DNA of 64,000 bases from Acidimicrobiales bacterium (GTDB lineage: Bacteria > Actinomycetota > Acidimicrobiia > Acidimicrobiales > CATQHL01), in assembly GCA_963668565.2 (NCBI GenBank), contig CAXXMX010000009.1, forward strand, positions 9,301 through 73,300, written 5' to 3'. Positions within the stretch are counted from its first letter, which is position 1. Each line of letters starts with the position of its first letter. A program made the position numbers and the translations under genes. Below, piece after piece: positions 38,068-58,241 of this stretch. Below the pieces are notes generated by a model, which was not told the DNA's origin, did not search any database, and saw nothing but the letters and a program-made list of their open reading frames with translations.

Positions 38068-38698
38068 CCCCGTCAGCTCCCCCCGGCGACCAACTGATCA
38101 GCCCCCGCTCCGGATCAGCAGCGGCGAAGGTGTAGATCGTGGCGGTGCCGTTCTCCCGATAGGTGAAGGAGGTCCTGCTCGTCGTGGTGATCGCCAGCGT
38201 CTCGTTGACGTCGTTGACGGTGACGGTCACCTCGAGGTAGCCGTAGTTCCGCCCGTCCGAGGCGCGCACCGAGAAGTCATAGACGTTGTCGCGCCCCGAG
38301 TCCGCCGGCCGCTCGAAGTCCGGCACATTCCTAAACGTCAACTCGCCGCCCTGGCTGATCGCGAAATCGCCGCCGTCGCTGCCCGACAGGCTCCACCGCG
38401 AGATGACGGCGCTCGGATCCTCCGGGTCGGTGGCCGTATAGGTCGCCAAGATCCGGTCGGTGGCCTGGTTCTCGGCGAACGACAGGCTCTGCAGGCCCGA
38501 GATCTCCGGTCCCTCGTTCTGCTCAACGACGGTTACCTCTACTTGCAGCTCGGCGCGGTTGCGTTCGCTGTCGGTGGCCTCCACGGTGACCTCATAGACG
38601 TTGTCCCGGTCGGCGTCGGTGGGACTCTCAAAGTCCGGCGGGCTGGCAAAGGTCAGAACACCCCGCCCGCGGCTATCGACGGTGATCGGTGAAGTCAT
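38042..38698 (-). CDS. giant cadherin-repeat protein, fragment 4
   Basis: 218-aa ORF equal to one repeat unit. Ends ...SWSPGGADGDDFTDHRR at the same indel motif that ends fragment 3. Confidence 0.7.
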   Translation of the reverse strand: MTSPITVDSRGRGVLTFASPPDFESPTDADRDNVYEVTVEATDSERNRAELQVEVTVVEQNEGPEISGLQSLSFAENQATDRILATYTATDPEDPSAVISRWSLSGSDGGDFAISQGGELTFRNVPDFERPADSGRDNVYDFSVRASDGRNYGYLEVTVTVNDVNETLAITTTSRTSFTYRENGTATIYTFAAADPERGLISWSPGGADGDDFTDHRR

Positions 38699-41600: not shown

Positions 41601-41828
41601 CTCGGCGAACGACAAGCTCTGCACGCCCGCCACCACCGGCCCCTCGTTCTGATCAACGACGGTTACCTCTACCTGCAACTCGGCGCGGTTGAACTTCGCT
41701 GTCGCGAGCCACCACGGTGACCTCATAAACGTTGTCCCGGTCAGCGTCGGCGGGGTTCTCAAAGTCCGGCGGGCTCGAAAACGCCAGAACACCCCGCCCG
41801 CGGCTATCGACGGTGACAGCGAAGTCAT
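38673..41828 (-). CDS. giant cadherin-repeat protein, fragment 3
   Basis: 1,051-aa ORF. Authentic frame runs from ...NRAELQVEVTVVDQNEGPVVAG onward, about five units. Confidence 0.75.
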   Translation of the reverse strand: MTSLSPSIAAGGVFWRFRARRTLRTPPTLTGTTFMRSPWWLATAKFNRAELQVEVTVVDQNEGPVVAGVQSLSFAENQATDRILATYSATDPEDPGTPITRWSLSGSDAGDFTVSGGGELSFRNVPDFEAPADSGRDNVYDFSVRASDGRNYGYLEVTVTVEDVNEAPVITTTSKTSFSYRENGTATIYTFSAADPEGAAISWSPGGADGDDFTITADSRGRGVLTFASPPDFENPTDANRDNVYEVTVEVTDDQSLTDSVEVTVTVSDVNEGPVVAGVQSLSFAENQATDRILATYSATDPEDPGTPITRWSLSGSDAGDFRISGGGELSFRNVPDFERPADSGRDNVYDFSVRASDGRNYGYLEVTVTVEDINEAPVITTTSRTSFSYRENGTATIYTFRATDPERGTISWSPGGADGDDFTITADSRGRGVLTFSSPPDFENPADADQDNVYEVTVEVTDDQSLTDSVEVTVTVSDVNEGPVVAGVQSLSFAENQATDRILAAYTATDPEDPGASISRWSLSGSDAGDFAISGGGELSFRNVPDFEAPADSGRDNVYDFSVRASDGRNYGYLEVTVTVEDVNEAPVITGTTSFTYRENGTATIYTFSAADPERGTISWSPGGADGDDFTITVDSRGRGVLTFSSPPDFENPTDADQDNVYEVTVEARDDAFNSGTLEVTVTVTGQNEGPEVSGVQSLSFAENQATDRILATYSATDPEDPGTPITRWSLSGSDAGDFTVSGGGELTFRNVPDFERPADSGRDNVYDFSVRASDGRNYGYLEVTVTVEDINEAPVITTTSRTSFTYRESSTATIYTFRATDPERVDISWSLSGPDDDDFAIYRGKLTFKTLRDFESPADSDRDNVYEVTVVARDSEGNRAELQVEVTVVDQNEGPVIAGVQSLSFAENLEEGRILAAYTATDPEDPGAVISRWSLSGSDAGDFAVSGGGELSFRNVPDFERPADSGRDNVYNFSVRASDGRNYGYLEVVVTVNDVNEAPVITTTSRTSFTYRENGTATIYTFSATDPEEGLISWSPGGADGDDFTDHRR

Positions 41829-42345
41829 CCCCGTCCGCTCCCCCCGGCGACCAACTAATGGCGGCCCCCTCGGGATCGGCGGCGCTGAACGTGTAAATCG
41901 TCGCGGTGCCGTTCTCCCGATACGTGAACGAGGTCTTGCTCGTCGTGGTGATCACCGGCGCCTCGTTGATGTCCTCGACGGTGACGGTCACCTCCAGATA
42001 GCCGTAGTTCCGCCCATCCGACGCCCGCACCGAGAAGTCATAGACGTTGTCGCGCCCCGAGTCCGCCGGCGCCTCGAAGTCCGGCACATTCCTAAACGAC
42101 AACTCGCCGCCCCCGCTGACCGCGAAATCGCCCGCATCAGAACCCGACAAACTCCACCGAGAGATGACCGCGCTCGGATCCTCGGGATCAGTCGCCGCAT
42201 AAGTCGCCAGGATCCGGTCGGTGGCCTGGTTCTCGGCGAACGACAAGCTCTGCACGCCCGCCACCACCGGCCCCTCGTTCTGATCAACGACGGTTACCTC
42301 TACCTGCAACTCGGCGCGGTTGCCTTCGCTGTCGCGAGCCACCAC
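41653..42345 (-). CDS. giant cadherin-repeat protein, fragment 2
   Basis: 230-aa ORF carrying one full 630-bp unit in the authentic repeat frame (DQNEGPVVAGVQSLSFAENQATDRILATY...). Confidence 0.7.
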   Translation of the reverse strand: MVARDSEGNRAELQVEVTVVDQNEGPVVAGVQSLSFAENQATDRILATYAATDPEDPSAVISRWSLSGSDAGDFAVSGGGELSFRNVPDFEAPADSGRDNVYDFSVRASDGRNYGYLEVTVTVEDINEAPVITTTSKTSFTYRENGTATIYTFSAADPEGAAISWSPGGADGDDFAVTVDSRGRGVLAFSSPPDFENPADADRDNVYEVTVVARDSEVQPRRVAGRGNRR

Positions 42346-45300
42346 GGTGACCTCATAAACGTTGTCCCGGTCAGCGTCGGCGGGGTTCTCAAAGTCCGGC
42401 GGGCTGGAAAACGCCAGAACACCCCGCCCGCGGCTATCGACGGTGACAGCGAAGTCATCCCCGTCCGCTCCCCCCGGCGACCAACTGATCGTGCCCCCTC
42501 GGGATCGGCGGCGCTGAACGTGTAAATCGTCGCGGTGCCGTTCTCCCGATAGGTGAAGGAGGTCCTGCTCGTCGTGGTGATCACCGGCGCCTCGTTGAGG
42601 TCCTCGACGGTGACGGTCACCTCCAGATAGCCGTAGTTCCGCCCATCCGACGCCCGCACCGAGAAGTCATAGACGTTGTCGCGCCCCGAGTCCGCCGGCG
42701 CCTCGAAGTCCGGCACATTCCTAAACGACAACTCGCCGCCCCCGCTGACCGTGAAATCGCCCGCATCAGAACCCGACAAACTCCAGCGCGTAATCGGCGT
42801 GCCCGGGTCCTCTGGATCGGTCGCCGAATAGGTCGCCAGGATCCGGTCGGTGGCCTGGTTCTCGGCGAACGACAAGCTCTGCACGCCCGAAACCACCGGC
42901 CCCTCATTCACGTCGCTGACAGTGACGGTGACCTCCCGGGTGCCGGCGTTGAAGGCGTCGTCGCGAGCCTCCACGGTGACCTCATAGACGTTGTCCCGGT
43001 CAGCGTCGGTGGGGTTCTCAAAGTCCGGCGGGCTGGCAAAGGTCAGAACACCCCGCCCGCGGCTATCGACGGTGATGGTGAAGTCATCCCCGTCCGCTCC
43101 CCCCGGCGACCAACTGATCGTGCCCCGCTCGGGATCGGTGGCGCGGAAGGTGTAAATCGTCGCGGTGCCGTTCTCCCGATAGGTGAAGGAGGTCCTGCTC
43201 GTCGTGGTGATCACCGGCGCCTCGTTGATGTCCTCGACGGTGACGGTCACCTCCAGATAGCCGTAGTTCCGCCCATCCGACGCGCGCACCGAGAAGTCAT
43301 AGACGTTGTCGCGCCCCGAGTCCGCCGGCCGCTCGTAGTCCGGCACATTCCTAAACGACAACTCGCCGCCCTCGCTGACCGTGAAATCCCCCGCATCAGA
43401 ACCCGACAAACTCCACCGAGAGATGACCGCGCTCGGATCCTCCGGATCAGTCGCCGTATAGGTCGCCAGGATCCGGTCGGTGGCCTGGTTCTCGGCGAAC
43501 GACAGGCTCTGCACGCCCGAAACCTCCGGCCCCTCGTTCTGACCAGTCACCGTGACGGTGACCTCCAGGGTGCCGGAGTTGAAGGCGTCGTCGCGAGCCT
43601 CCACGGTGACCTCATAGACGTTGTCCCGGTCAGCGTCGGTGGGGTTCTCGAAGTCCGGCGGGCTGGAAAAGGTCAGAACACCCCGCCCGCGGCTATCGAC
43701 GGTGATCGTGAAGTCATCCCCGTCCGCTCCCCCCGGCGACCAACTGATCGTGCCCCGCTCGGGATCGGCGGCGCTGAACGTGTAAATCGTCGCGGTGCCG
43801 TTCTCCCGATACGTGAACGAGGTGGTGCCGGTGACCAGCGGCGCCTCGTTGACGTCCTCGACGGTGACGGTCACCTCCAGATAGCCGTAGTTCCGCCCAT
43901 CCGACGCGCGCACCGAGAAGTCATAGACGTTGTCGCGCCCCGAGTCCGCCGGCGCCTCGAAGTCCGGCACATTCCTAAACGACAACTCGCCGCCCCCGCT
44001 GATCGCGAAATCCCCCGCATCAGAACCCGACAAACTCCACCGAGAGATGACCGCGCCCGGATCCTCCAGATCAGTCGCCGTATAGGCCGCCAGGATCCGG
44101 TCCGTGGCCTGGTTCTCAACGAACGACAAGCTCTGCGAGCCCGAAACCACCGGCCCCTCGTTCTGATCAACGACGGTTACCTCTACCTGCAACTCGGCGC
44201 GGTTGCCTTCGCTGTCGCGAGCCACCACGGTGACCTCATAGACGTTGTCCTGGTCAGCGTCGGTGGGGTTCTCGAAGTCCGGCGGGCTGGAAAACGCCAG
44301 AACACCCCGCCCGCGGCTATCGGCGGTGATCGTGAAGTCATCCCCGTCCGCTCCCCCCGGCGACCAACTGATCGTGCCCCGCTCAGGATCGGCGGCGCTG
44401 AACGTGTAAATCGTCGCGGTGCCGCTCTCCCGATAGCTGAAGGAGGTCCTGCTCGTCGTGGTGATCACCGGCGCCTCGTTGACGTCCTCGACGGTGACGG
44501 TCACCTCCAGATAGCCGTAGTTCCGCCCATCCGACGCCCGCACCGAGAAGTCATAGACGTTGTCGCGCCCCGAGTCCGCCGGCGCCTCGAAATCCGGCAC
44601 ATTCCTAAACGACAACTCGCCGCCCCCGCTGACCGTGAAATCGCCCGCATCAGAACCCGACAAACTCCAGCGCGTAATCGGCGTGCCCGGGTCCTCTGGA
44701 TCGGTCGCCGAATAGGTCGCCAGGATCCGGTCGGTGGCCTGGTTCTCGGCGAACGACAAGCTCTGCACGCCCGCCACCACCGGCCCCTCATTCACGTCGC
44801 TGACCGTGACGGTGACCTCCACGCTGTCAGTGAGGCTCTGGTCGTCGGTGGCCACCACGGTGACCTCATAGACGTTGTCCCGGTCAGCGTCGGCGGGGTT
44901 CTCAAAGTCCGGCGGGCTGGCAAAGGTCAGAACACCCCGCCCGCGGCTATCGACGGTGATCGTGAAGTCATCCCCGTCCGCTCCCCCCGGCGACCAACTG
45001 ATCGTGCCCCCCTCGGGATCGGCGGCGCTGAACGTATAAATCGTCGCGGTGCCGTTCTCCCGATACGTGAACGAGGTGGTGCCGGTGATCACCGGCGCCT
45101 CGTTGACGTCCTCGACGGTGACGGTCACCTCCAGATAGCCGTAGTTGCGCCCATCCGACGCGCGCACCGAGAAGTCATAGACGTTGTCGCGCCCCGAGTC
45201 CGCCGGCGCCTCGAAATCCGGCACATTCCTAAACGACAACTCGCCGCCCCCGCTGACCGTGAAATCCCCCGCATCAGAACCCGACAAACTCCACCGAGAG

Positions 45301-48300
45301 ATGACCGCGCTCGGATCCTCTGGATCGGTCGCCGTATAGGCCGCCAGGATCCGGTCGGTGGCCTGGTTCTCGGCGAACGACAAGCTCTGCACGCCCGCCA
45401 CCACCGGCCCCTCATTCACGTCGCTGACCGTGACGGTGACCTCCACGCTGTCAGTGAGGCTCTGGTCGTCGGTGGCCACCACGGTGACCTCATAGACGTT
45501 GTCCCGGTCAGCGTCGGCGGGGTTCTCAAAGTCCGGCGGGCTGGAAAACGTCAGAACACCCCGCCCGCGGCTATCGACGGTGATCGTGAAGTCATCCCCG
45601 TCCGCTCCCCCCGGCGACCAACTGATCGTGCCCCGCTCGGGATCGGCGGCGCTGAACGTGTAAATCGTCGCGGTGCCGTTCTCCCGATACGTGAACGAGG
45701 TGGTGCCGGTGATCACCGGCACCTCGTTGACGTCCTCGACGGTGACGGTCACCTCCAGGTAGCCGTAGTTCCGCCCATCCGACGCCCGCACCGAGAAGTC
45801 ATAGACGTTGTCGCGCCCCGAGTCCGCCGGCGCCTCGAAATCCGGCACATTCCTAAACGACAACTCGCCGCCCCCGCTGACCGTGAAATCGCCCGCATCA
45901 GAACCCGACAAACTCCACCGAGAGATGACCGCGCTCGGATCCTCGGGATCAGTCGCCGCATAAGTCGCCAAGATCCGGTCGGTGGCCTGGTTCTCAACGA
46001 ACGACAAGCTCTGCGAGCCCGAAACCACCGGCCCCTCATTCACGTCGCTGACCGTGACCACCACGTCCAGGGTGTCTGTGAGGCTCTGGTCGTCGGTGGC
46101 CACCACCGTGAACTCATAGACGTTGTTCCCGCCGGCGTCGGCCGGGCTCTCAAAATCAGGCGGGCTGCGGAAGGTCAACACGCCGCTGGAACTGATCGCG
46201 AAGGCATGGCTGTCGGGGCCCGTGACCATCCAACTGACGGGCCTGCCCTGGGGGTCCCGCGCCCGGAAGGTGTACACGGCGCCCGTTCCGTTCTCCCGGT
46301 ACGGCGACGGGTTGCTCGTGGTCGTGATGGTGGGCTCCTCCGGGCCCGCGGAGTTGGTGACGGTGACCGTCACCTCCAGGGTCGCAAGGTTGGGGCCGTC
46401 GTCTCGGGCCTCCACCGTTACCAGGTAGTCGTTGTCCTGGTTGGCGTCCGCCGGATTCTCAAAGTCGGGGATGTTGACGAAGGTCAACACGCCCGTCTCG
46501 CTGATTTCGAAGTCGTCGCTATCTGTCCACGAGACCGACCAGGTAACAGCGTCGCGCTCGGGGTCCGTGGCGCGGTAGGTGGCCACCGCCCGGACACCGT
46601 TCTCGGGGAACGCCGGAGCTTCGTCACCCGTTATCGTGGGCGCCTCGTTGACGTCACGCACGCTGATCGTGACGTCCAGGGTGCCCCGGAGCCCGCCTTC
46701 CTCGGTGGCGATCACCGTCGCCAGGTACTCGTTGTTGCCGCCGGAGTCCGCCGGTCGCTCGTAGTCGGGCGGGTTCTTGAAGGTGACCACGCCCGCGTCG
46801 CTGATTTCGAAGTCACCCCGGTCCGTCCCGCCGAGGCTCCAGGTGATGTTGGTCGTGGCGCCCTCAGGGTCGTCGGCGGTATAAGAGGCGACGTCGCCGG
46901 TGCCGTTCTCGTCGTAGTCGTCAACGGTGGCGGCCCCGGTGATCACCGGCGGCTCGTCAACGTCGTTCACGGTGACCGTCACGCTGATGGTGTCGTCGAT
47001 CGTCGTGTCCGAGTTGCCGTAGATGTCCTTCCCGTCGTGTACTGACATCGTGAAGGAGTAGCTGTCGCGGGACTCGTGGTCGAGTGCCGCCTTGGTACGC
47101 AACTGGCCGCTCGACGCGACCACGTCAAACAAGGCAGCGTCCGCACCGGAGATCGAGTAGGTGAGCCTGTCGCTGTCCGCATCGGTGGCCGCGACCGGCG
47201 TCCCGATGTTGCGGTTCGCGGGCGTGTTCTCATCCACACTGCGGACACCGTCCTCGCCGGAGGGAAACTCCGGCGGGCTATTGGCGCTCCGGGTAATAGA
47301 AACCGTGGCCCTGTTATTTCCGCCGGCATAGTTGCCGAGTGTGTCTTTGAGCGGGGGATGGGTACTGCGCGGCACGCCGTAGTCGACTCTGAGCTGGTCG
47401 GTCGCCTTGATGTCCGAATACAGCGTCAAAGTCACCACCCTGCCAGCGACGGAGATCGTTCTGATACGGATGATAAGGCGATTCGTTCCGGCGCTCGTAT
47501 ATCGGACCGTGAACCCCCTACCGAACCGAGTGGGCACGGAGTCTTCGTCTAGAGCCTCGTCCCAGGTCAGCGTCACGTGGTTGCCGTTCGCCAACGCGCC
47601 CGCGGAGACCAAGGTCGGGCGAACGGCGTCAACGAGGTGCCCGCTTTGAGCGCCGAGAACGACACGAGCGGGAGCCACACCCTTGGTGGAAGCGTAGCGG
47701 ACCAGGCCCTGGGCGGTTGATATGGCGCCGTCTGGGACGCTGATTCCGACGGTATCGGCCTCGCCTTCGGTCAATGCGTAGCGGAACACCAGCGAGGTCG
47801 TGCCCGAACCGCTGCGGTATGTCGCGTGTCGTGTCTGTCCCCCGATCAGCAGTGCGAGTTCCGGCCTGCCGCTCACCACCACGTTCTCGCCGAAGGTCAC
47901 CGTTGCCTCGATCACGTCCTGTCTGCCGCGCCAGTTGCCCCAGATGTAGGTCATGTCCGTGCCGGGATCTGAGGTGATCGCGACTTGAGTTGTGTCGTTT
48001 CGAACCTCCTGGCCCGAAAAGTCGGAGGCGTTGTTCGTGGCGGAGTCCTTGAGCGGGTTCGCTCCGGACCCGGTCGGCGCCGAGTAGCCGACCGTCACCG
48101 TGTCGCTCGCGTTGACGGCCGGCGCCAATGAGAGCGTGACGACATTGCCTAGGACTGATACTTCGTCGATCCCGCGGCTCACGCCGCCAACGTTCACAGT
48201 GAACGCGGTCGATGCCGGTTCCGAGGATGCATCAAGCGCCTCGTTCCAAGTCAACCGCAGCGTTGCCCTATCAACCGTTGCTGCCGACAGCGTCGGCGCG

Positions 48301-49916
48301 GTCGTGTCGGTCGCGGTCGGTGTTGCCGTTGTCTCTGCTGCTGCGCCGTCACCGTTATCGTTGTAGGCCAGCACTCGAAGCGTGTGACTCTCGTCGTTGG
48401 TCAATCCGCTGATCGTTCGCCGCAGATCTGTGAGGTTCGTGACCAACGCCTCCCTCGAGGAGCTGTAGTCTTGAGTGCCGGATTTCCACTGGACCTTGTA
48501 TCCCGAAATCGGTGATCCGCCGTCGTCGGGCGGCTCCTGCCAGGACACGGCTAGCTTCCCGGCGCCAACGGCGGTGGCCCCCACGTCTGCGGGCGCCTCG
48601 GGGACGCAGCCGCCGTCGTTCCAAGGATTGCGCGTCACGCCGTCTGCGAACGCCGACTCGGTCGCCTTGGAGTCGTCGCAATAGCCGCCGAACGCGTCCC
48701 GCAGCTGGTAGACGACGGCCCTCTGCCTCTCGAGGCCCGAGAGCACCTTCACATCGGCCCAGACTCGTACCAGATCAGGATCCCCGACGGAGTCGTTGTA
48801 GGTATCGGCGAACCAGGACGGCATCTGTCCTGTGGCCGCGCTCCCGAGCACGGCGAGAGCTTGCTCGGTAGCGGTGTCGGCGGCGGAGCATTGCCGCCAA
48901 TAGCGGCTCGGATCCCGTCCCCCGTCCCCGAGAGTGAGAATCAGCAGCCCGTCGGCGTATAACTCAATAGCATTGCAGGCTGATCCAGGTCCCTCTCGAC
49001 CGTCCGGGGAGACCAAGGCAAGGAAGTAGAGATGAGCGATCCCCACCGGAGCGGGCGTCGAGGCCACGTCGTTCACCAGCGTATAGACATGCGCCAGCTC
49101 ATGAATGATCACATCAATCACGTGGGGGTCGAACCTACCGACAATGATCCCCCACCCATCGCAGCGCCACAGGTCCGAATCCACCAGATAGTCCGGTGAT
49201 GTGCACCCACCGCTGTAGCGACCGCCTGCCGCCACGCCAAAATTCACAAAAGCGTCTTGGGCTGTCATGTAGTCCCATGTTTCGCGCAGCCAGGGAAACG
49301 AACTCTCAAGAATCTCGACAACCTCGTTCTCGACGAACTCCCGCGACTGGCCGGGGGTCGACTGCGGCGTTCCCGTCGCCTCCCCAGAGGCGTCGCTGCC
49401 CCCGTTGGCGTTCGCGGCGATGACCCGCACCGTGTACTCGGTGCCGTCAGTCAGCCCCGTGAGGACGGCCTTGTACCGGTCGCCGGCCGAGGTCGACTGC
49501 GCGCTTTCGATGCTCGTCGCCGGATCGCTCGATAGCTGCCGGGACGAGTCGAACTCCTCGCTTCCCGATTTCCACTGGACCTTGAACGACGTGGTCGACG
49601 CGTCCGACGACGACCAGCGCACCTCCAGCTTCTCGCTCTCGACGCTGTAGACCGCCACCGCCGTCGGCGCATCGGGACCCAGAGACTGGGCGAACGCCAC
49701 GGGGCTGATCACCAAGACAGCGACAACGGACCCCAACAACACAAGCGCGAAGACAACACCACCCCACAGCAACTGAGGTGCTTCTGAGTAAATGTCCGTT
49801 TTTGGGGGTTTGATTACGCCGCATTGGGCGGGTGTGTTCATGGCTGGTTTGGTTTGTTGTTGAGGCTTCGCGAAAACGTGGGTTTTGGGTCTGTTGGTGT
49901 CGGTTGGGTGCATCAT
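42300..49916 (-). CDS. giant cadherin-repeat protein, fragment 1 (N-terminal 2,47x residues are in the authentic frame; the tail is out of frame after about 42495)
   Basis: 2,538-aa ORF. Real sequence ends at ...TFSAADPEG and is followed by Arg/Pro-rich frameshift read-through. An alternative start is ATG 49841 (MNTPAQCGV...). Confidence 0.8.
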   Translation of the reverse strand: MMHPTDTNRPKTHVFAKPQQQTKPAMNTPAQCGVIKPPKTDIYSEAPQLLWGGVVFALVLLGSVVAVLVISPVAFAQSLGPDAPTAVAVYSVESEKLEVRWSSSDASTTSFKVQWKSGSEEFDSSRQLSSDPATSIESAQSTSAGDRYKAVLTGLTDGTEYTVRVIAANANGGSDASGEATGTPQSTPGQSREFVENEVVEILESSFPWLRETWDYMTAQDAFVNFGVAAGGRYSGGCTSPDYLVDSDLWRCDGWGIIVGRFDPHVIDVIIHELAHVYTLVNDVASTPAPVGIAHLYFLALVSPDGREGPGSACNAIELYADGLLILTLGDGGRDPSRYWRQCSAADTATEQALAVLGSAATGQMPSWFADTYNDSVGDPDLVRVWADVKVLSGLERQRAVVYQLRDAFGGYCDDSKATESAFADGVTRNPWNDGGCVPEAPADVGATAVGAGKLAVSWQEPPDDGGSPISGYKVQWKSGTQDYSSSREALVTNLTDLRRTISGLTNDESHTLRVLAYNDNGDGAAAETTATPTATDTTAPTLSAATVDRATLRLTWNEALDASSEPASTAFTVNVGGVSRGIDEVSVLGNVVTLSLAPAVNASDTVTVGYSAPTGSGANPLKDSATNNASDFSGQEVRNDTTQVAITSDPGTDMTYIWGNWRGRQDVIEATVTFGENVVVSGRPELALLIGGQTRHATYRSGSGTTSLVFRYALTEGEADTVGISVPDGAISTAQGLVRYASTKGVAPARVVLGAQSGHLVDAVRPTLVSAGALANGNHVTLTWDEALDEDSVPTRFGRGFTVRYTSAGTNRLIIRIRTISVAGRVVTLTLYSDIKATDQLRVDYGVPRSTHPPLKDTLGNYAGGNNRATVSITRSANSPPEFPSGEDGVRSVDENTPANRNIGTPVAATDADSDRLTYSISGADAALFDVVASSGQLRTKAALDHESRDSYSFTMSVHDGKDIYGNSDTTIDDTISVTVTVNDVDEPPVITGAATVDDYDENGTGDVASYTADDPEGATTNITWSLGGTDRGDFEISDAGVVTFKNPPDYERPADSGGNNEYLATVIATEEGGLRGTLDVTISVRDVNEAPTITGDEAPAFPENGVRAVATYRATDPERDAVTWSVSWTDSDDFEISETGVLTFVNIPDFENPADANQDNDYLVTVEARDDGPNLATLEVTVTVTNSAGPEEPTITTTSNPSPYRENGTGAVYTFRARDPQGRPVSWMVTGPDSHAFAISSSGVLTFRSPPDFESPADAGGNNVYEFTVVATDDQSLTDTLDVVVTVSDVNEGPVVSGSQSLSFVENQATDRILATYAATDPEDPSAVISRWSLSGSDAGDFTVSGGGELSFRNVPDFEAPADSGRDNVYDFSVRASDGRNYGYLEVTVTVEDVNEVPVITGTTSFTYRENGTATIYTFSAADPERGTISWSPGGADGDDFTITVDSRGRGVLTFSSPPDFENPADADRDNVYEVTVVATDDQSLTDSVEVTVTVSDVNEGPVVAGVQSLSFAENQATDRILAAYTATDPEDPSAVISRWSLSGSDAGDFTVSGGGELSFRNVPDFEAPADSGRDNVYDFSVRASDGRNYGYLEVTVTVEDVNEAPVITGTTSFTYRENGTATIYTFSAADPEGGTISWSPGGADGDDFTITVDSRGRGVLTFASPPDFENPADADRDNVYEVTVVATDDQSLTDSVEVTVTVSDVNEGPVVAGVQSLSFAENQATDRILATYSATDPEDPGTPITRWSLSGSDAGDFTVSGGGELSFRNVPDFEAPADSGRDNVYDFSVRASDGRNYGYLEVTVTVEDVNEAPVITTTSRTSFSYRESGTATIYTFSAADPERGTISWSPGGADGDDFTITADSRGRGVLAFSSPPDFENPTDADQDNVYEVTVVARDSEGNRAELQVEVTVVDQNEGPVVSGSQSLSFVENQATDRILAAYTATDLEDPGAVISRWSLSGSDAGDFAISGGGELSFRNVPDFEAPADSGRDNVYDFSVRASDGRNYGYLEVTVTVEDVNEAPLVTGTTSFTYRENGTATIYTFSAADPERGTISWSPGGADGDDFTITVDSRGRGVLTFSSPPDFENPTDADRDNVYEVTVEARDDAFNSGTLEVTVTVTGQNEGPEVSGVQSLSFAENQATDRILATYTATDPEDPSAVISRWSLSGSDAGDFTVSEGGELSFRNVPDYERPADSGRDNVYDFSVRASDGRNYGYLEVTVTVEDINEAPVITTTSRTSFTYRENGTATIYTFRATDPERGTISWSPGGADGDDFTITVDSRGRGVLTFASPPDFENPTDADRDNVYEVTVEARDDAFNAGTREVTVTVSDVNEGPVVSGVQSLSFAENQATDRILATYSATDPEDPGTPITRWSLSGSDAGDFTVSGGGELSFRNVPDFEAPADSGRDNVYDFSVRASDGRNYGYLEVTVTVEDLNEAPVITTTSRTSFTYRENGTATIYTFSAADPEGARSVGRRGERTGMTSLSPSIAAGGVFWRFPARRTLRTPPTLTGTTFMRSPWWLATAKATAPSCR

Positions 49917-49919
49917 GTC

Positions 49920-51465
49920 ACGAGGAGTGCGCGGGCGGCGAAGTTGTGGGGGTTGGTGAAGCCGTGGGCGGTGCGGCGTAGGACTTGGAGGAGGTTGATG
50001 CTCCTATGTTTGTCAACTCGCGATCTGTGCGAGGTATCGCTGGTAGCGTTCTGCGAGGTCGCGGTTGTGGATGGCGCCTCTTTCGAGTGCGGATATCCGG
50101 GTGGGTGCGGCTCCGAGGGCTTGGGCTGTCTGGTTGATGGTGAGCCGTCGTTGGGTGCGCTGGCGGCGAAGGTCGGCTCCGTGGACGACGTCGGGCGGGT
50201 CGGTGATCAGCTTGTAGACCTCGCGTGCGATGTGGCGCTTGAGGCAGCGGAGTATCTCGCGGCGGGTCTTGCCCTGGGCGGTGAGGCGAGCGGCGTAGGC
50301 GATGCTGCGCTCGTCGAAGCGCAGGCGGACCATCGCGATGCGCCACAGGGCGTTGTTGGCGCGTCGGTTGCCGCCGCGGTTGAGTCGGTGGCGCACCGTT
50401 CGGCCTGAGGACGCCTCAACGGGGCTGGTGCCGCACAGGGCGGCGAAGGACGCCTCGCTGTGCATCCGCTCGGGGTTGTCCCCGGCGGCGACGAGCAGCG
50501 AGGCTGCGGTCTCGGCGCCGACGCCGCAGGCGCTGAGCAGCGCCGGGTTGGCTCGCTCGCACAGGCGGCGCAGCTCGGTGTCGAGGTGCTTGATCTCCGC
50601 GGTGAGCGCCTGGTGGCGGCGGGCCAGACAGCGCAGCGCCTGCTTGGCCGCTGCAAGGACGGGATCGCAGCCCGCGCCGGGCCGCATCCGGGCGCAGGCC
50701 TCGACGGTGCGGGCCGTGTTCAGTGCCCGCAGCCGGTCTTTGACCTGCTCGGGCGCGGTAACGACGACGGCGCCGATCTGGTTGGCGGCGACGGTGCGGG
50801 CCTTGACAGCGGAGCGCCGCGCCACAGACAGCACCCTGATCGCCTCGACGCACCCGTCGGCGCTCTTGGGCACCACAGCGGCAGAGCCGCTGAGCGCAGC
50901 CAGCGCCGCGGCGTGCGCGTCGACGGTGTCGGTCTTGCCGCGGCGGCGGCGCAGTTGGCGGTTCGGGCGGTTCACGTCCACGACGTCTACGCCGGCCTGA
51001 GCGAGGCACCGGGCGAGACCCGCTCCATAGGAGCCGGTGCCCTCCACGCCGACGCGCTCGACGCTGCCGCAGCCGCGGAGCCATCCCAGCAGCTCCGCGT
51101 AGCCGGCGGCGTCCGCGCCGAACGCGGCCGTGCCCAAGACCCGTCCGGCGCCGTCGACAGCGGCGGCGACATGGGTGTGCTTGTGTGTGTCGACCCCGCC
51201 GAAGACGCCGGGGCGGTGTTGCTGTGTCAAGATGGTGATGCCTCCTTGTGGTCATCTCACTGTCGGGGGCGCCACCGGCCGCGACGGCGGACAGAACACT
51301 CACGGTGCGGTTTGCAAAGGCTCCTATCGGGTCACATCCATCGGGCCGGTCGGTGCGCGCCCCGCCGACCGGAGCGGGCCGACAGATCAACCTGAAGACA
51401 CAAGGCCAGTTGGTGCCTGGGTCAGACCCGCTCCTGCCGGCAGGGCCCAACCATTATGAGTGTTG
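49920..51465 (-). mobile_element. IS110-family insertion sequence (boundaries approximate), inserted into an ISL3 transposase gene and abutting the giant gene start
   Basis: Contains the IS110 transposase ORF. The upstream boundary is inferred from where ISL3 transposase similarity stops (about 51465). The downstream boundary must lie in the 96 bp between 49917 and 50012. Confidence 0.6.
50013..51230 (-). CDS. IS110-family transposase (DEDD recombinase) with a C-terminal XRE-like HTH tail
   Basis: 405 aa. N-terminal GGVDTHKHTHVAAAVD (DEDD_Tnp_IS110 pattern), Transposase_20-like region ending ...LKRHIAREVYKLI, then about 55 extra residues: LRRQRTQRRLTINQTAQALGAAPTRISALERGAIHNRDLAERYQRYL. Confidence 0.85.
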   Translation of the reverse strand: MTQQHRPGVFGGVDTHKHTHVAAAVDGAGRVLGTAAFGADAAGYAELLGWLRGCGSVERVGVEGTGSYGAGLARCLAQAGVDVVDVNRPNRQLRRRRGKTDTVDAHAAALAALSGSAAVVPKSADGCVEAIRVLSVARRSAVKARTVAANQIGAVVVTAPEQVKDRLRALNTARTVEACARMRPGAGCDPVLAAAKQALRCLARRHQALTAEIKHLDTELRRLCERANPALLSACGVGAETAASLLVAAGDNPERMHSEASFAALCGTSPVEASSGRTVRHRLNRGGNRRANNALWRIAMVRLRFDERSIAYAARLTAQGKTRREILRCLKRHIAREVYKLITDPPDVVHGADLRRQRTQRRLTINQTAQALGAAPTRISALERGAIHNRDLAERYQRYLAQIAS

Positions 51466-52523
51466 GTGCCTTGGAGGTCGTCGACGAGCTCGGTGGCGTA
51501 GGTGGCGGCGAGTTGGGGGCAGTCGATGTCGTAGAGGCCGCGGAGGGTCTCCTTGGCGTGCCACGCCAGGCGGACCTCGCCGTGGGGGTCGCCGGCGGCG
51601 AGCAGGCCGCGGAGTTTCGCCTCGCCGCGTTCGCTGAGGCGTTCGTGGGCGGAAATGAGTAGCCGCCGCGCCCGATACAGCGGGTCGTCCTTGCGCCCCC
51701 GAGCGCCGAGCGTGTCGTTCTGGGTGCGCCGTCGCACCTCGTCGATGCAGCTGTTGGCCAAGCGGACGACATGGAACGGGTCAGCGACCTGGCCGGCGTG
51801 GGGCAGCGCCACGTCGAAGGCGCGCCGGTACGCCCCGGAGAGGTCCAGCACCCCCCAGTCGATGCCCCCGCGCCACGCCTCGGGTTGCGCGAGCAGCCAC
51901 GCGATGGGGCGCTCGGCGTCGCGACCAGGGACAATGTCGAGCAGCTGGCCCCGGTGCACGTCCACGATCGACGTGCACCAGTTCCGGGTGCGCCACCGTC
52001 CGGCGCGCCCGAACAGGGTCTCATCGAGACCCAGCGCCTCCACCGCTCCCACACGGTCGGCGTCGGCGGCCAACAGCGCCTCGCCCCAGGCGAGCACCGC
52101 CCGGTTCACCGTGTGCCAGTCACAACCCAACTCGGCTGCCACATCGGCGACCGGGCGGGCGTCGCGGCCCACCGCCATCGTCGCCCAGCGTCCCGCCCGC
52201 GCCGTCAACGCCGCGCGGGCCGGCGCGATCTGTTCATCGACCTCGGTGAACGAACCCACCGGACACCCCGCATCGACACAGCACCAGCGGTGCTTGTGCC
52301 ACACGAGGCGCACCGGGCGCCCGAACACCGCCAGATCCACCAACCCCACCGGGCTGGCGCCCTTGGACCACACCGACCCGCCGCAGCCACCACACGGCGG
52401 CCGCGGCGCCCCGCTGCGGATGTGCACCCCCAACGGCCCGCCGGGCGCATCATCGACGCCGAGGACCTCCACATCACCGAGACCGACGATCAACTCACAG
52501 ATACGCGTAGGGTTCTCCTCCAC
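51387..52523 (-). CDS. ISL3-family transposase, C-terminally truncated (about 350 authentic residues, then read-through into IS110 sequence)
   Basis: 378-aa ORF. N-terminal zinc-finger region CGGCGG...WCCVDAGCPVGSFTE, an HTH region and a DDE core (LGLDETLF...). Lacks the conserved C-terminal part of ISL3 transposases. The left IR ggctcttcggaaatg is the complement of 52605-52619. Confidence 0.8.
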   Translation of the reverse strand: MEENPTRICELIVGLGDVEVLGVDDAPGGPLGVHIRSGAPRPPCGGCGGSVWSKGASPVGLVDLAVFGRPVRLVWHKHRWCCVDAGCPVGSFTEVDEQIAPARAALTARAGRWATMAVGRDARPVADVAAELGCDWHTVNRAVLAWGEALLAADADRVGAVEALGLDETLFGRAGRWRTRNWCTSIVDVHRGQLLDIVPGRDAERPIAWLLAQPEAWRGGIDWGVLDLSGAYRRAFDVALPHAGQVADPFHVVRLANSCIDEVRRRTQNDTLGARGRKDDPLYRARRLLISAHERLSERGEAKLRGLLAAGDPHGEVRLAWHAKETLRGLYDIDCPQLAATYATELVDDLQGTNTHNGWALPAGAGLTQAPTGLVSSG

Positions 52524-52906: not shown

Positions 52907-55900
52907 TCAGCCCAGCGTCGTGTGACCCGGCTTCGGTTTCCGTGCGACCGCTGGCGCCTTCTTGGCCTCGGGCGGGACCGGTAGCACACCGGCGGCCGTG
53001 AGGTCGCCGACGGTGACCTGCGGTCCATCGAGGATCGCCGTCAGCAGTTCGGCCTGTTCAGGCTCGAGAGCGACGAGGGCGGTGAGCGCGTTGAGAACGT
53101 CGAGAAGCTCTCTGTCCCACTCCGGGCGCCAGCCCGGCGGGGTGATCCTGTCCAGGGAGTCAGGGTCCTGCGTTCCCTTGCTCGGCTTGCGGTAGTTAAA
53201 CCAGGATCTGATGACGTTGGTGCCTGAGACTTTGTAGTCGTGGACCTCCGGGGCGACGTTCTCGAACACGCCGTTCCCGATTCGGAGTTCCCACCGCTCG
53301 GAGTCATAAGCGAGCGCCCGGTTGAGGGTCCCCTCTCCGGTTTCGGATCGCGACAGTGGTCGATTGTCCACGCGAATTCGTCCGGCCGGGCGACCGTCGC
53401 TCGACGTCGACGTAGCGCTCGCCGAAGGTCTGTGCCCAGATGACCCGCCGGCCGATCCCGAGGGCCATCGACCAGTAGTCGACGTCGGCGGTGACGGGTA
53501 TTCGCAGGCCCGGTGTGTGGGGTGAGACATCGTTGAACCAGGCTGTGTACGCGGGGTGAGCACACACGGCGGCCACGTAGGCGAGTAGGTCCTCCGGTGT
53601 CACGTTTGTGTCGAACAGTCCACCGAGATGGCCGAGCAACCCGGGCGTGACGTTCGGGGCGGTGGCGGTGCTGTCCCGCCAGAGTGGAAACGCGCGGCCG
53701 CCACGCCCGTGATAGTGATGCAGGCCGGGTAGCAGGTGAGTGAACGTGACCGCCGGTCCGTTGTCCGGGTGATCATCCTCGATGCAGGTGAGGTGAATCT
53801 GGTGGTCGCTGCGTGCCTCCCACAACGCCGGCCGGGCCCTGTCGAGAACCCGAATGTCGGGAATGATCCTCTGGCGGTCGAACGACCGCCAAGCCAGGTG
53901 GATAGGGCTTGGACACGGATTCATTTCACGCGAGATCGGCCTCGCCGCCGACTCGTCGGGCCAGCCGCGAAGATTGGTCTTGAATCCCCGATCGATCGTG
54001 CGGCTGTCGGTCTCGTTGAAGAGCGCTTTCTTTCGCTCCAAGTCCGCCTCCGCGATGAGTTCGTCCCAGCGCTGCTCGAGAGTGTTGGAGTCCGGCGAGG
54101 TCGGCCAGCCGCGATTGGCCAGGACCCCGGGTGAGGACCACGGCAGCAGGTCGTGGATGCACGGGCAGGTGCGCCAGATGCGCTGTCCCGCGGGTTTGAA
54201 GGATGCGCGCCAGTCCTTGGGGCATTCGGTCCACGCCTTGGGCGAGTCGTCCGTGATTCCCATCGTCGCCAGCTCGGCGAACTTCTCGTCTCGGTTGCCG
54301 GGAGCGACCTCCCGGAATCTCACTGTTGCCGCTGACGCGTCGGTGTGGGGGGAGCGGACGGCGCAGACGACGGCGATTTCGTGCTGGACCTGCTCGAACA
54401 TCCGCGTCGGGACGTCGGGCTGGTGGCCTTCGGGGGACAGCGAGACCACCCAGATCTCTGAACACCAGTGCCGCAACCAGGAACGCATTCCCTGAAACCC
54501 GTCGCCGCTCAGCCATGCGGCGGTCGTGACGAAACAGACGATGCCGGGTGACTCGCCACCGTTGTTACCGGAGTTCTCCAGCACCTTCCAACCCGCCCAG
54601 CGCCAGAAGTAGATGAGCAGGTTCGACATGTTGTACACATGCGCACCGACGCCCCAGTCCGTCGGTGGTTTCCAGTCGTCAAGGATCGATGGCTCTTTCG
54701 TGTCGGGCTTGCCGTGCTCGACCCAGCCGCCGAGTCCCTTTGCCCGCTCGCGGTACGGCGGGTTGCCGATGGCGACCATGACGGGCGTTGACTTCTTGAG
54801 CTCGTTGGCGGCGCGCCTTTCCCGGCTGATCGGTTCGTAGATCGATCCCAGGTGCTCCTCTTCGGCGTACGGATTCGCCAGAGTGTCCGCCAGCAGTACG
54901 CGCGGTGCGCTGCCCACTCCGTGGCGGCGGAACCTGGCGCCCGTACGGAACTGGGCCACGCTGTAGGGGCCGGTCTGCAACTCGAAACCGATGAGGCGAG
55001 CCGCGGCGTTCCTCAGCGCACCTGCGACCGCTCCGATCCCATCGCGCTCCTCGACTGTGGAGGCGATCCTGTCGATGACGTGGAGCAGGAAGGTTCCGGT
55101 CCCGGCGGCCGGGTCGATCACGGTCACCGCCTCGTTGGCGAATCCCGAGGGTTTGCCGAGCCGCGAGACGAGCACCTCGTCGGTAAGGCGCACCATGAAC
55201 TTCACGAGTTCAGCGGGCGTGTAGTACGAGCCGGACTCCTTGCGCAGATCGGGGTCGTACTGGGCGAGAAAGTCCTCGTAGAAGTAGAGCCAGTCACCGG
55301 CGTCGTTCAGCAGCGCCGGGTCGGTTGCGGCGAGCAGTGACAGAAGGGACTCGACGGCCGGCTCGATGTGTCTGATAGCGCTCTCGGCGCAAAGCACCGT
55401 GAGGGCAGTCGGAATCAGGCCGACCTCGGCGTCGAGCGCCCTCGTTGCCTGCGCCACCCGCTCAGCGACACTGCCGCCGGCAGTGAGCCCGGCGTCGGCG
55501 GCACGCGCGCCGATCAACCCGAACGTGATGGTCTGTGCATATGCGTCAGCGAACTCCGCGTCGCTTGCCTGCGGGAACAGCAGCGACCGCCAGTCCCCTG
55601 CGACGGCGGCAAGTCCTTCAGATCTGCCGGCTTCGAGCGTGTGAAGAATCTGGTTGCGCAGGACCCGGCAGAGGCGAGCGGTCGTCCGGGCGAGTTCTTG
55701 AGTTGTCGCTGGGGGACGCGGGGCGTTGGCGCAGAACGCATCGAGCAGGTGCACCAGATCGCCCGCGTCGATCCTGGCGCTGGCGATTCTCTTGCCCGGC
55801 GCCGTCCAAGCCGTGACACGCGCGACCTGTTGACTGTCCTGCCAGAGGATCCAGTCGATCCCGTCGGTGTAGAGCAGGTTCGGCAGGTGACGAAGCTGCA

Positions 55901-56228
55901 TCCACTGATCCAGGTTGTGGCCCGTGAATCCAGCAGGATCAACACCTGCACCAGAGGCCTTGAGTTCGATGTGACCGATGATCAATCCACGTCGGGCCAC
56001 GGTGTAATCGGGCCGCGCGCCCTCGACTGCCCCGGAGATCTCACCGGCAAGCACGAACTTCGGATAGCCGAGGTCCTCCGCGACCGATTCGACCAACACC
56101 TCGACCGGTCGACGCAGATGATCCTCCAGCGCGATCCCATCGTTCGCCCGAGCCGCCGCAGTAACTCGCAACCGAAGATCCGCGTAGAGGCGCTCCGCTG
56201 TCAAATGAGCCGGAGTGACTGGGGTCAC
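52907..56228 (-). pseudogene. type IIG / type ISP-like fused restriction-modification enzyme: N-terminal PD-(D/E)xK nuclease, gamma-class N6-adenine methyltransferase, and a Type-ISP-like C-terminal specificity domain. Interrupted by a +1 frameshift near 53390-53415
   Basis: ORF 53304..56324 has ARPDYTV...IGHIELKASG (D...ExK), VIDPAAGTGTFLL (motif I), IGNPPY (motif IV), and AWRSFDRQRIIPD / GRAFPLW in the C-terminal domain. The domain continues in ORF 52907..53563 in another frame (LAYDSERWELRIGNGVFENVAPEVHDYKVSGTNVIRSWFNYRK). I start it at GTG 56228, 19 nt after the upstream stop, rather than at 56324. Confidence 0.7.
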
Positions 56229-56247: not shown

Positions 56248-56730
56248 CTATGCCGACTTGTGCCAGCGTTGGGGGATTTCTCTACCGCATTGGACCACAC
56301 GAACCGGTACCGCTTTTCCCCCAAACCTCAATGGCTTTCTCAGTCGGGTTCGATCTGCGGTCCGACGAAGATCTCTTTCGGTAAATGCGAAACAGACGCG
56401 GGCTCTCCTAATGTCAACTTTGACTAATTCGTGGTCCGCAATTGTCTTGAGTCCCGCATTGGCTTGTCTTCGACCTTTGAGTTTCATGACGCCCTTAATC
56501 TCAACAACTAGCCACCTAATGTCCTCAGGACCCTCACAAACTTGAAGAGCGATGATGTCGGGTTTCTGCTCATTCTCGTTGAATGCATTACATCGATCAC
56601 AGTCGAAGGCAGCCCGGAGTCCACGAATCGTCAAACGACAGCCACTCTTGGAGACGACGCCACTAGTCATATTCCCGGTGGGGCAAGTGCAGAGGGTGTG
56701 AAATTCGCGCAGTGCGTCGATCGAACTCAT
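56248..56730 (-). CDS. small Cys-cluster + PD-(D/E)xK nuclease-like protein (candidate effector)
   Basis: 160 aa. LCTCPTG...GCRL...DCDRC cysteine cluster, then KPDIIAL and about 19 residues later VVEIKG. 4-nt ATGA overlap with the ATPase gene. Low-GC codon usage. Confidence 0.5.
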   Translation of the reverse strand: MSSIDALREFHTLCTCPTGNMTSGVVSKSGCRLTIRGLRAAFDCDRCNAFNENEQKPDIIALQVCEGPEDIRWLVVEIKGVMKLKGRRQANAGLKTIADHELVKVDIRRARVCFAFTERDLRRTADRTRLRKPLRFGGKAVPVRVVQCGREIPQRWHKSA

Positions 56731-58241
56731 GCACGCTGTGCGTCGATCAGCGCAGCCGTTTGGTTCGTTAGATCGTCAGCGATATCCGCGTATTCTTCTT
56801 CGGGGATACCCCAGTCTGGTTCGATCTCTACTGGACTAATGACAACTCCGCCCTCGTCGACCTCGCGTCGGAATCGGAACACTCCTATATCAGAGTGCGC
56901 AATACGGTCCTCGGCTGAAAGGCTTACGTCCACGCTTGGAGCGTTCGCCGACAACATACAATTTGATATCTGGTCCAGTAGAATACTGCTATGCGTGGTG
57001 CACAGCATTTTTACGCCGGTATTGGCGAGCCGGACGAGCGCGCGGGCTACAAGTCGGATCGCCTCAGGGTGCAAGTGTGATTCCGGCTCGTCAACGATCA
57101 GCAGACTTCCAGGGTGTACGATCTCTCGCGTCCAAATGATAAGTGGACTGAGATCTGCGACCATTGACGATGCCCTCTGGACCGGAATCCGATTGCCGCC
57201 TTGCTGATAGATTAGAGCAGGAATGTCGTAAGACTCTGCGTCAATTGTAACGGATCCAGCTATGGCCTGCTCTAATAGATGAATAGCTGAGTCGACATCG
57301 CCAGATTCTGCGAGGCTCTGCCGCTGGATGCGGCTGCGATGAGAAAAGAGACCCTGGAACTCTGAGATAAAGTCTAGAGCGGCACCACTGAGCGAGATAT
57401 CGGTGTCGCGGTCAAGTCCGAATCGCTCTCGATCAAGCTGCAGCGTCATACGTACCACATCGGTCCAAGCGTGTAGGAGTCCCGAACGGCCAGACGGAAG
57501 GTAATATGAACTGAAGCCGAAGCCCGTTTTCCCTAGGATACGAAACCAGAGGTGCAGTGACCAGTACCTGGAGAATCGCTCATATCGATACTCTTGATCT
57601 TCTGAAAGAGATGAGTTCGGATAGCTTCTTCGTACGTGGTCATCGGTAGTACGCAGCGTGTTCTTGAGTAGTTCTTGGTCGTTGACTAGGTATCCAAGTG
57701 GATCCGGTGGCGTGTCGGGGATGCCAAACAAGTAAGTCTCAGCAGATTGTGTGCGTGTCGATACTGTGAACGACAGAGGACCATTGCTGCCCCATGTCGT
57801 GACGTCTTTGGAATCAGGAACACCGAAGTAAGCTTGTACTCGTCCGGGTAGCCGAAGAGAGCTATCATGAAAGTAGCTTTCAATCCATGACTGCGCCTTT
57901 CTGAGTACTGTCGCAATAGGTCGAATATCTTGAGGATTGTCGACGTCGGCTGGCTGCAATTGCAGCAATTTCGGTTCCGAGTCTTCTGCGCTCTTCTTGA
58001 ACTCCGAGATTTCGCCAGTGCGCAGGAGGGTTTGGAGCAGCTCGAATTCAGTCGAGTCAAGCAATGGCACGTTTGTGGGAAGGGCGGCATCGAGCGCTTT
58101 ATGGGCAGCGTGGATGGCTTGAGCCATGTACGTCTTACCGGTGTTGTTCTTGCCGATGAGCAGCGTAAGGGGGCGCAGCTCAACCTCGCCACTGCGGATC
58201 GGCCCCAGGTTCTCGACTCGAAACGTCGGTGAAGGAGTCAT
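56727..58241 (-). CDS. ABC-type ATPase of the AAA_15/AAA_21 (PtuA/AriA/OLD-ATPase-like) kind
   Basis: 504 aa. Walker A LLIGKNNTGKTY at residues about 27-38, a long helical insert, YLPSGRSGLL, Walker B SLLIVDEPESHLHP and H-loop LCTTHS near the C-terminus. Confidence 0.8.
   Translation of the reverse strand: MTPSPTFRVENLGPIRSGEVELRPLTLLIGKNNTGKTYMAQAIHAAHKALDAALPTNVPLLDSTEFELLQTLLRTGEISEFKKSAEDSEPKLLQLQPADVDNPQDIRPIATVLRKAQSWIESYFHDSSLRLPGRVQAYFGVPDSKDVTTWGSNGPLSFTVSTRTQSAETYLFGIPDTPPDPLGYLVNDQELLKNTLRTTDDHVRRSYPNSSLSEDQEYRYERFSRYWSLHLWFRILGKTGFGFSSYYLPSGRSGLLHAWTDVVRMTLQLDRERFGLDRDTDISLSGAALDFISEFQGLFSHRSRIQRQSLAESGDVDSAIHLLEQAIAGSVTIDAESYDIPALIYQQGGNRIPVQRASSMVADLSPLIIWTREIVHPGSLLIVDEPESHLHPEAIRLVARALVRLANTGVKMLCTTHSSILLDQISNCMLSANAPSVDVSLSAEDRIAHSDIGVFRFRREVDEGGVVISPVEIEPDWGIPEEEYADIADDLTNQTAALIDAQRA

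Follow-up and report, generated by a model that had tools for sequence, protein, structure and literature searches.

The stretch analysed here, hereafter the window, comprises 64,000 nucleotides (nt) of DNA from an Acidimicrobiales bacterium (assembly GCA_963668565.2, contig CAXXMX010000009.1, positions 9,301 to 73,300 of the forward strand) and carries on its minus strand two overlapping genes, designated A and B, that probably form a defence module. The pair is likely to be a two-component anti-phage module of the PD-T4-4/WonAB/PDC-M47 class, in which an ATP-binding cassette (ABC) ATPase is combined with a small effector of restriction endonuclease (REase) fold. It is a divergent, cysteine-decorated member of a described class and not an undescribed kind of system. 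The basis of this assignment in the present analysis is the homology of both proteins, their catalytic motifs, the coupling of the two genes, the conservation of the pair across phyla and the hypervariability of an insert within the ATPase. The features of the locus are listed below, with coordinates referring to the window.

56727..58241, minus strand: gene A, predicted ATPase of 504 amino acids (aa); from the list of open reading frames (ORFs) and the sequence
56248..56730, minus strand: gene B, putative PD-(D/E)xK protein of 160 aa; from the ORF list and the sequence
56727..56730, minus strand: ATGA stop/start overlap of genes A and B, indicative of translational coupling
57509..58095, minus strand: hypervariable ATPase insert (roughly aa 46-240, between Walker A and the GRSG motif), proposed infection-sensing surface
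52907..56228, minus strand: gene of a type IIG restriction-modification (RM) enzyme, beginning 19 nt beyond gene B; from PADLOC and Pfam

The ATPase

The product of gene A displays a Walker A motif (LLIGKNNTGKTY), a Walker B motif (SLLIVDEPESHLHP) and an H-loop (LCTTHS). It is matched in Pfam by AAA_15 (2.1e-17) and AAA_21 (5.5e-15), and among the PADLOC models the best is PD-T4-4_A (8.6e-35 and 2.2e-28, over two stretches, the C-terminal extension being among the parts covered), followed by PDC-M47A (5.2e-27) and, far more weakly, by NsnB, HEC-02A, AriA, Old and GajA. Gene A thus encodes one of the OLD/PARIS/Gabija-like ABC ATPases. The family has at least 273 relatives, with identities of about 40% in Acidimicrobiia and in metagenome-assembled genomes (MAGs) of sponge symbionts. 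The only solved structures reached by the ATPase sequence were those of PtuA and of an OLD nuclease, in both cases via the Walker B region. The landmarks of the protein are:

K36: Walker A lysine
247-254: YxPxGRSG motif
D384-E385: Walker B
H417: H-loop histidine
about 431-504: C-terminal extension

The first four of these are invariant in the ATPase alignment, in which K36, E385 and H417 represent the Lys of Walker A, the Glu of Walker B and the His of the H-loop on which WonAB depends.

The small protein, a putative nuclease

The gene B product carries the motifs HTLCTCPTG, GCRL, DCDRC and KPDIIAL...VVEIKG. A word-based search with this protein found three relatives only, and a profile built from these and the window protein (four sequences) was run against 1.84 billion representatives, retrieving 100 proteins at E<=1e-3, 42 of them at E<=1e-10, all with a length of about 150-170 aa. 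In an alignment of 63 of the family sequences, D45, P57 and D58 are invariant, and H11, C31, C44, C47, W73, E77, K79, Q89 and G93 are conserved in at least 90%. When 142 sequences are considered, D58 is kept in 140, E77 in 137, Q89 in 134 and K79 in 130. Two sets of residues can be distinguished:

D45, D58, E77, K79, Q89: putative catalytic residues, from conservation and the AlphaFold model
H11, C14, C16, C31, C44, C47, C148: His/Cys cluster, specific to one subclade

The AlphaFold model obtained with the family alignment as input (pLDDT, the predicted value of the local distance difference test, 90.9; predicted template-modelling score, pTM, 0.87) places strands at 38-43, 59-64 and 71-79, a helix at 85-99 and a further strand at 110-116, which corresponds to the αβββαβ core of restriction endonucleases. 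D58 lies at the start of β2 and E77-x-K79 on β3, as the PD-(D/E)xK superfamily requires. The top PDB matches of the model in Foldseek all belong to this superfamily (HamA of Hachiman, BsmI, BspD6I, Card1, EcoO109I, BamHI, FokI, Can2 and MspJI), and a Foldseek search against viral structures returned nuclease matches of the same kind. The core topology and the uniformly PD-(D/E)xK nature of these matches support the view that gene B encodes a divergent, putative nuclease of REase fold. Sequence-level searches were negative in two respects, since the small-protein profile found nothing among PDB sequences even at E<=10, and tblastn with the small protein found nothing in plasmids and phages.

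The full pattern H11/C31/C44/C47/C148 is present in 53 of the 142 sequences and is lacking in PD-T4-4_B, so that the His/Cys cluster appears as an elaboration confined to one subclade. It is probably a structural metal site, with zinc as the most likely metal.

A preliminary description of this locus, drawn from the DNA letters and their ORFs, had reported two minus-strand genes overlapping at ATGA, and both the ORFs and the sequence bear this out. The ATPase and small-protein motifs that it quoted are all present, its placement of gene A in the OLD/PARIS/Gabija-like clade agrees with the AAA_15/AAA_21 and PADLOC matches, and its proposal that gene B specifies a PD-(D/E)xK-type protein with a Cys cluster is in keeping with the REase topology of the model and the near-invariance of D58, E77 and K79.

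Homology to PD-T4-4

The reference PD-T4-4 pairs used for comparison were those of the E. albertii plasmid pEA4_36, the E. coli plasmid pSCU-105-5 and the Vibrio phage 1.202.O. All three are genuine PD-T4-4 pairs, the PADLOC scores of the pEA4_36 pair being 2.2e-258 (A) and 5.2e-107 (B). For the ATPase, hhalign aligned the family to the genuine PD-T4-4_A of locus L084 (related loci are designated by L numbers) at 99.1% probability and E 6e-19, over the C-terminal 180 residues including the C-terminal extension.

The small protein required more sensitive comparisons. The PD-T4-4_B hidden Markov model (HMM) gave no match to the window protein, and at E<=0.01 it matched none of the 63 family members. 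PDC-M47B was weakly matched by 11 of these 63 (best 6.5e-5), the window's own B protein reaching none of the PDC-M47B models, and genuine PD-T4-4_B proteins cross-match PDC-M47B. A forward iterative profile, seeded from the window's small-protein family and run over the ORFs found downstream of the ATPases, converged on 79 proteins that include both plasmid PD-T4-4_B proteins (L084, 9e-12; L085, 6e-14), E-values that are optimistic because the ORF database was small, local and chosen by position. The reverse iteration, started from three PD-T4-4_B proteins, recruited the window protein at iteration 2 and converged on the same 79. As a control of specificity, the final profile was found to match 84 of the 12,010 ORFs of all loci, 82 of which lie directly downstream of an ATPase gene. 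Moreover, it matches the PD-T4-4_B of the Vibrio phage, never seen in its building, at 2.7e-7. Alignment by hhalign of the 63-sequence family to the first-round PD-T4-4_B alignment gave 92.7% probability and E 4e-7 over 99 columns, spanning D45, D58, the ExK motif and Q89. It is concluded from these profile comparisons that the proteins of genes A and B are remote homologues of PD-T4-4 A and B.

The preliminary description had regarded the pairing of such an ATPase with a PD-(D/E)xK protein as unnamed. This view has to be abandoned, as PD-T4-4 (PMC9519451) and WonAB (PMC12137116) are already pairs of this type, and an existing named system is matched by both proteins at the level of remote homology. 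The PADLOC check that it had recommended identified the ATPase, with PD-T4-4_A as best match, and returned no match for the small protein. Current B models, at least the PADLOC models tested, miss the effector of this subclade, and because no PD-T4-4_B HMM detects the window's B protein, PADLOC-type tools would not call the system.

Distribution and variation of the pair

Scanning of the ATPase alignment against one genome per species yielded 80 loci, distributed among Acidimicrobiia, Dehalococcoidia, Thermomicrobiales, Acidobacteriota, Poribacteria, Latescibacterota, Alphaproteobacteria, Bacteroidota, Myxococcota and two archaeal MAGs, among others. A member of the small-protein family lies immediately downstream of the ATPase gene in the 16 closest loci (L004-L019) and, once the iterative profile is applied, in essentially all of them (about 80). 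Overlap or close abutment of the A and B genes is also found in the relatives' loci. Because the two genes are neighbours in about 80 loci, their pairing is beyond chance. The settings of the pair vary, as it can stand alone among metabolic genes, in a dense defence island or, in the window's lineage, beside a type IIG RM gene.

Two of the related loci deserve individual mention. In L090 (1-17449), an orthologous pair (ATPase 41% identical) is found between type I hsdR and hsdS genes, in a dense defence island with SLFN_AlbA_2, DUF488, NYN, PhdYeFM, Hypoth_Ymh, HEPN_RES_NTD1-RES and ApeA_NTD1 neighbours and several uncharacterised ORFs. In L015 (1833-3922), a Thermoproteota archaeon MAG, a pair of the Cys-cluster type includes the top-scoring small-protein match among the genome loci, which suggests either inter-domain transfer or a binning artefact.

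The pair also differs from its surroundings in base composition. Between positions 56000 and 58000 the GC content falls to 0.50-0.58, the surroundings being at about 0.65-0.70. In every allele of the window's lineage the pair has a GC content of about 0.53, with 0.65 in the RM gene and 0.68 in the flanks, deep divergence notwithstanding, and family-wide the pair lies below its flanks in 73 of 75 loci, by a mean of 0.069. Since it is maintained in all lineage alleles and in nearly all of these family loci, the low GC content is a stable property of the pair and gives no sign of recent arrival. Promoter and terminator scans at the locus performed at chance level, and an Rfam scan near the pair matched no family and no retron RNA.

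Within the window's lineage, variation is concentrated in one part of the ATPase. In the comparison of the window with the syntenic locus L087, positions 57509-58095 cannot be aligned at the DNA level and the flanks are 85-94% identical, with 85% identity over the RM gene, the small gene and the ATPase gene's 3' half and 90% identity upstream from about ATPase codon 45. The same picture emerges when protein identities are averaged over eight of the lineage's alleles:

ATPase residues 1-45: 86%
ATPase insert, residues 46-240: 28%
ATPase core: 68%
ATPase C-terminal extension: 65%
Small protein: 48%

The insert region also has the lowest GC content of the region (0.50). Inserts of defence ABC ATPases have been proposed to set specificity (bioRxiv 10.1101/2024.01.29.577857), and because it is hypervariable and consistent with such published proposals, the insert at about aa 46-240 is the best candidate for the sensor of the module. 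Co-evolution of the C-terminal extension with the small protein, as would be expected of an interface, was also considered, but their identities show a correlation of only 0.26 and no such co-evolution is claimed.

The alleles have in addition a mosaic character. The small proteins of the window and L087 are 85% identical and their ATPases only about 57%, the window and L003 having ATPases 72% identical and small proteins 59% identical. Such mosaics suggest recombination within the module.

The neighbouring genes

The gene that follows the pair is matched by the PADLOC model REase_MTase_IIG (7.9e-267) and by Pfam N6_Mtase and Type_ISP_C, and starts with GTG at 56228, 19 nt past the gene B stop and on the same strand. 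Its product comprises an N-terminal PD-ExK nuclease, an N6-adenine methyltransferase and a Type_ISP_C specificity domain. Relative to the intact orthologues of L086, L087 and L088, the window's RM gene has a 1-nt insertion at about 53401-53402 that puts the last ~160 aa out of frame and affects the end of the Type_ISP_C domain, so that the single intact polypeptide of a type IIG enzyme is not encoded here. The frameshift may reflect either a pseudogene or a sequencing error.

The trio formed by the pair and this RM gene is found in nine loci (the window, L001-L003, L025 and L086-L089). The stored gene calls of L086-L089 omit the small gene, which profile and tblastn searches confirmed in L086-L088. 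All trio loci are of one lineage, L087 sharing P450, CBS, RPE65, TauE and GFO_IDH neighbours with the window at 90-94% nucleotide identity. Within this lineage the RM protein is 73-84% identical, with a GC content of 0.65, and the pair, at 0.53, diverges much faster. In L025 the ATPase gene is fragmented and the RM gene intact. No homologue of the RM gene occurs within 8 kb of the pair in L004-L019, the 16 closest loci of other lineages, and for this reason the type IIG RM gene is treated as separate; it is most likely a defence gene in its own right, whose linkage to the pair is limited to a single lineage.

Two transposase genes follow directly downstream of the RM gene, arranged back to back:

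51387-52523, minus strand: ISL3-family transposase gene
50013-51230, minus strand: IS110-family transposase gene

At the position of these transposases, the syntenic locus L087 has a lysozyme/SLT_3-like gene and other genes. Upstream of the trio, HipBA and an AAA_14/DUF4143 ATPase gene are immediately adjacent in L088 (4523-7799), L089 (4651-7927) and L002 (900-2168), the window having neither of them there. The locus acts as a small hotspot of variation. Further along the window, positions 35344-49916 (minus strand) are occupied by a run of genes for giant surface proteins with cadherin, Big_9, fn3 and SWM repeats, including one ORF of 2538 aa at 42300-49916. A large defence island in the window was considered and rejected, as the neighbours at 35-50 kb are cadherin-repeat proteins without PADLOC matches.

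As regards genomic context, the preliminary description had made its proposal depend on the conservation of the two genes as neighbours, and they are so conserved. It had also taken the surroundings as favourable to a defence role, and the co-oriented RM gene 19 nt away, the insertion sequence (IS) elements and the low GC content are indeed present, but as a defence island the context is thin, amounting to one frameshifted RM gene and two IS elements. The survey of relatives that it had proposed gave a divided answer, with some pairs in a dense island or beside RM genes and others isolated among metabolic genes.

Proposed mechanism and alternative explanations

If the pair is a module of the PD-T4-4/WonAB/PDC-M47 class, the ATPase would dimerise via its ABC head and the hypervariable insert (aa ~46-240) would sense a phage-derived cue. 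By analogy with the described relatives, ATP binding or hydrolysis would then license or stabilise the small nuclease, which, as in the WonAB model, probably docks on the C-terminal extension of the ATPase, and the site formed by D45, D58, E77-x-K79 and Q89 would cut nucleic acid and halt phage development, probably by abortive infection.

Several points weigh against this proposal. No Pfam, PADLOC (E<=0.1) or NCBIfam model matches the gene B protein. When compared by hhalign with single PD-T4-4_B sequences, the small-protein family aligns through its catalytic core alone, at E-values that are not significant (0.03-0.05), and the E-values of the iterative searches are, as noted, optimistic. 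The structural matches to solved nucleases are weak, the best Foldseek E-value being 1.7e-2 with a template-modelling (TM) score of about 0.35 and none falling below 1e-3. Complex formation, sensing and the abortive outcome are presumed by analogy. Furthermore, cellular DNA is not simply degraded in WonAB, the reference system (PMC12137116).

The proximity of the RM gene raises an alternative, judged unlikely, in which the ATPase and the small nuclease would make up, with the type IIG RM enzyme, one integrated three-gene system. In PARIS, the anti-restriction protein Ocr triggers a pair consisting of an ABC ATPase and a nuclease, and in one version of this alternative the present pair would serve as a PARIS-like guard, firing once the RM enzyme is disabled by a phage anti-restriction protein. 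In the other version, the pair would lend a motor or a second nuclease to an RM enzyme without the helicase domain of type ISP enzymes; the RM protein has indeed Type_ISP_C and no ATPase domain. The three genes share one strand, and in the scan mentioned above no minus-strand terminator-like site was found between them. In the window and L001-L003 the RM start follows gene B after only 19-28 nt, but this gap extends to about 200 nt in L087 and L088. The trio has been kept in nine loci despite ATPase identities of 46-72% and small-protein identities of 35-85%, yet these loci all belong to one lineage and several share the P450, CBS, RPE65, TauE and GFO_IDH neighbours, and are therefore not independent. 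Outside this lineage the 16 closest pairs are without this RM gene, and elsewhere the pair stands by itself or belongs to other islands. Pair and RM gene are markedly unlike in GC content and in rate of evolution, and the components decay separately, the RM gene being frameshifted in the window with the pair intact and the opposite occurring in L025. A more elaborate form, to which slightly less credence is given, would have the insert monitoring the RM enzyme or anti-restriction proteins and freeing the Cys-cluster nuclease as an abortive back-up, that is, a PARIS-like guard wired to the RM gene it guards; under such a scheme the low-GC signature might keep the pair silenced until needed.

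Less credible again is the idea that the pair is a toxin-antitoxin-like or addiction module, or a selfish element stabilising its islet, with no dedicated anti-phage role. The Pfam family AAA_21 that matches gene A is annotated as 'putative AbiEii toxin', and HipBA and other toxin-antitoxin genes adjoin the pair in some loci, but the pair itself has no antitoxin-like DNA-binding partner. Its GC content, below that of the flanks in nearly all loci, and the IS elements nearby in the window would suit mobile DNA, but the locus is stably syntenic within the lineage and not hopping. In addition, a hypervariable, sensor-like insert suits an arms race better than addiction, and the closest characterised relatives, PD-T4-4 and WonAB, were discovered or examined as defences against phage and depend on the catalytic residues of both proteins. 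A housekeeping role in repair or recombination, in which an SMC/RecF/SbcC-like ABC ATPase would act with a repair nuclease, is the least plausible of all and highly improbable. ABC ATPases with inserts and PD-(D/E)xK nucleases do act in repair as well, and gene A has weak AAA_23 matches, but the best ATPase matches are all defence ATPases, one relative resides inside a type I RM/defence island, and the patchy distribution, foreign GC content and extremely fast divergence of alleles are not those expected of such a module.

The favoured assignment of the pair to the PD-T4-4/WonAB class opens no new category of defence system. It does extend this class to high-GC Actinomycetota-like bacteria, Chloroflexota, sponge symbionts and one or more archaeal MAGs, and supplies a profile for a Cys-cluster nuclease subfamily that current HMM-based tools miss. 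The variable insert between otherwise near-identical syntenic alleles represents, besides, a natural experiment for mapping what the class senses.

Comparison with known systems

PD-T4-4 was recovered by functional selection for anti-phage defence in E. coli (Vassallo et al. 2022, PMC9519451) and has been classed as a system of a PD-(D/E)xK nuclease and a P-loop NTPase (bioRxiv 10.1101/2025.07.10.664194). The window's pair resembles it in having A followed by B on one strand, overlapping or abutting (an order also kept in the ~80 related loci), in an A protein predicted to be an ABC ATPase of the OLD type, some 460-500 aa long and ending in a C-terminal extension, and in a small B protein whose D...(D/E)xK...Q core can be aligned with that of PD-T4-4_B. 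It differs in the size of B (160 aa, compared with about 200-210 aa in PD-T4-4_B), in the His/Cys cluster, which PD-T4-4_B does not have, and in the ATPase, whose insert is unrelated and whose overall identity is about 25%. The hosts differ as well, being high-GC Acidimicrobiia-like bacteria and sponge-symbiont MAGs here and enterobacterial mobile elements in the case of PD-T4-4.

WonAB (AWB73975.1 and AWB73976.1), carried by the WASA-1 prophage of Vibrio cholerae, is described as an OLD-type ABC ATPase associated with a nuclease of variant REase fold, defence requiring both genes, the nuclease Lys and, in the ATPase, the Walker A, Walker B and H-loop motifs (PMC12137116). According to the same source, WonB was modelled on the C-terminal extensions of WonA, defence takes the form of a lysis-independent abortive infection, and the system is stated to be kin of PD-T4-4 and of the 'OLD-ABC ATPase + novel REase' operon of Krishnan et al. 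2020, these kin varying in Insert 1/2 and in the C-terminal extension (PMC12137116). The window's pair shares with WonAB its architecture and, presumably, its logic, with an ABC ATPase bearing the same motifs and a small variant-REase protein, in which K79 would be equivalent to WonB K71. WonAB is distinguished by being prophage-borne and found mainly in Gram-negative hosts, and by an abortive-infection phenotype that is known for WonAB alone; the part of the report available mentions no Cys cluster for WonB. Placement near phage regulatory genes has been seen in both described systems, as in the P2-like Vibrio phage 1.202.O (Peduoviridae; L092, 2077-4108) the repressor and integrase genes flank a genuine PD-T4-4 pair, and WonAB in WASA-1 is similarly placed downstream of a putative transcriptional regulator (PMC12137116).

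PDC-M47 is an untested PADLOC candidate for which a literature search under that name found no published description. Gene A matches PDC-M47A (5.2e-27), the window's B protein reaches no PDC-M47B model, and 11 of the 63 members of its family match PDC-M47B weakly. Finally, PARIS (AriAB), Gabija (GajAB), Septu/retron PtuAB, P2 OLD and HEC-01/02 share with the pair the same OLD-type ABC ATPase clade (PADLOC 1e-8 to 1e-21) and the logic of a two-component sensor and nuclease. The ATPase similarity is limited in these cases to the Walker B/H-loop region. For neither of the two window proteins do Pfam, PADLOC and NCBIfam give a match to TOPRIM or HNH, and whereas the effectors of those systems are of the TOPRIM, HNH or NERD types, that of the pair described here is predicted to be built on a minimal REase fold.

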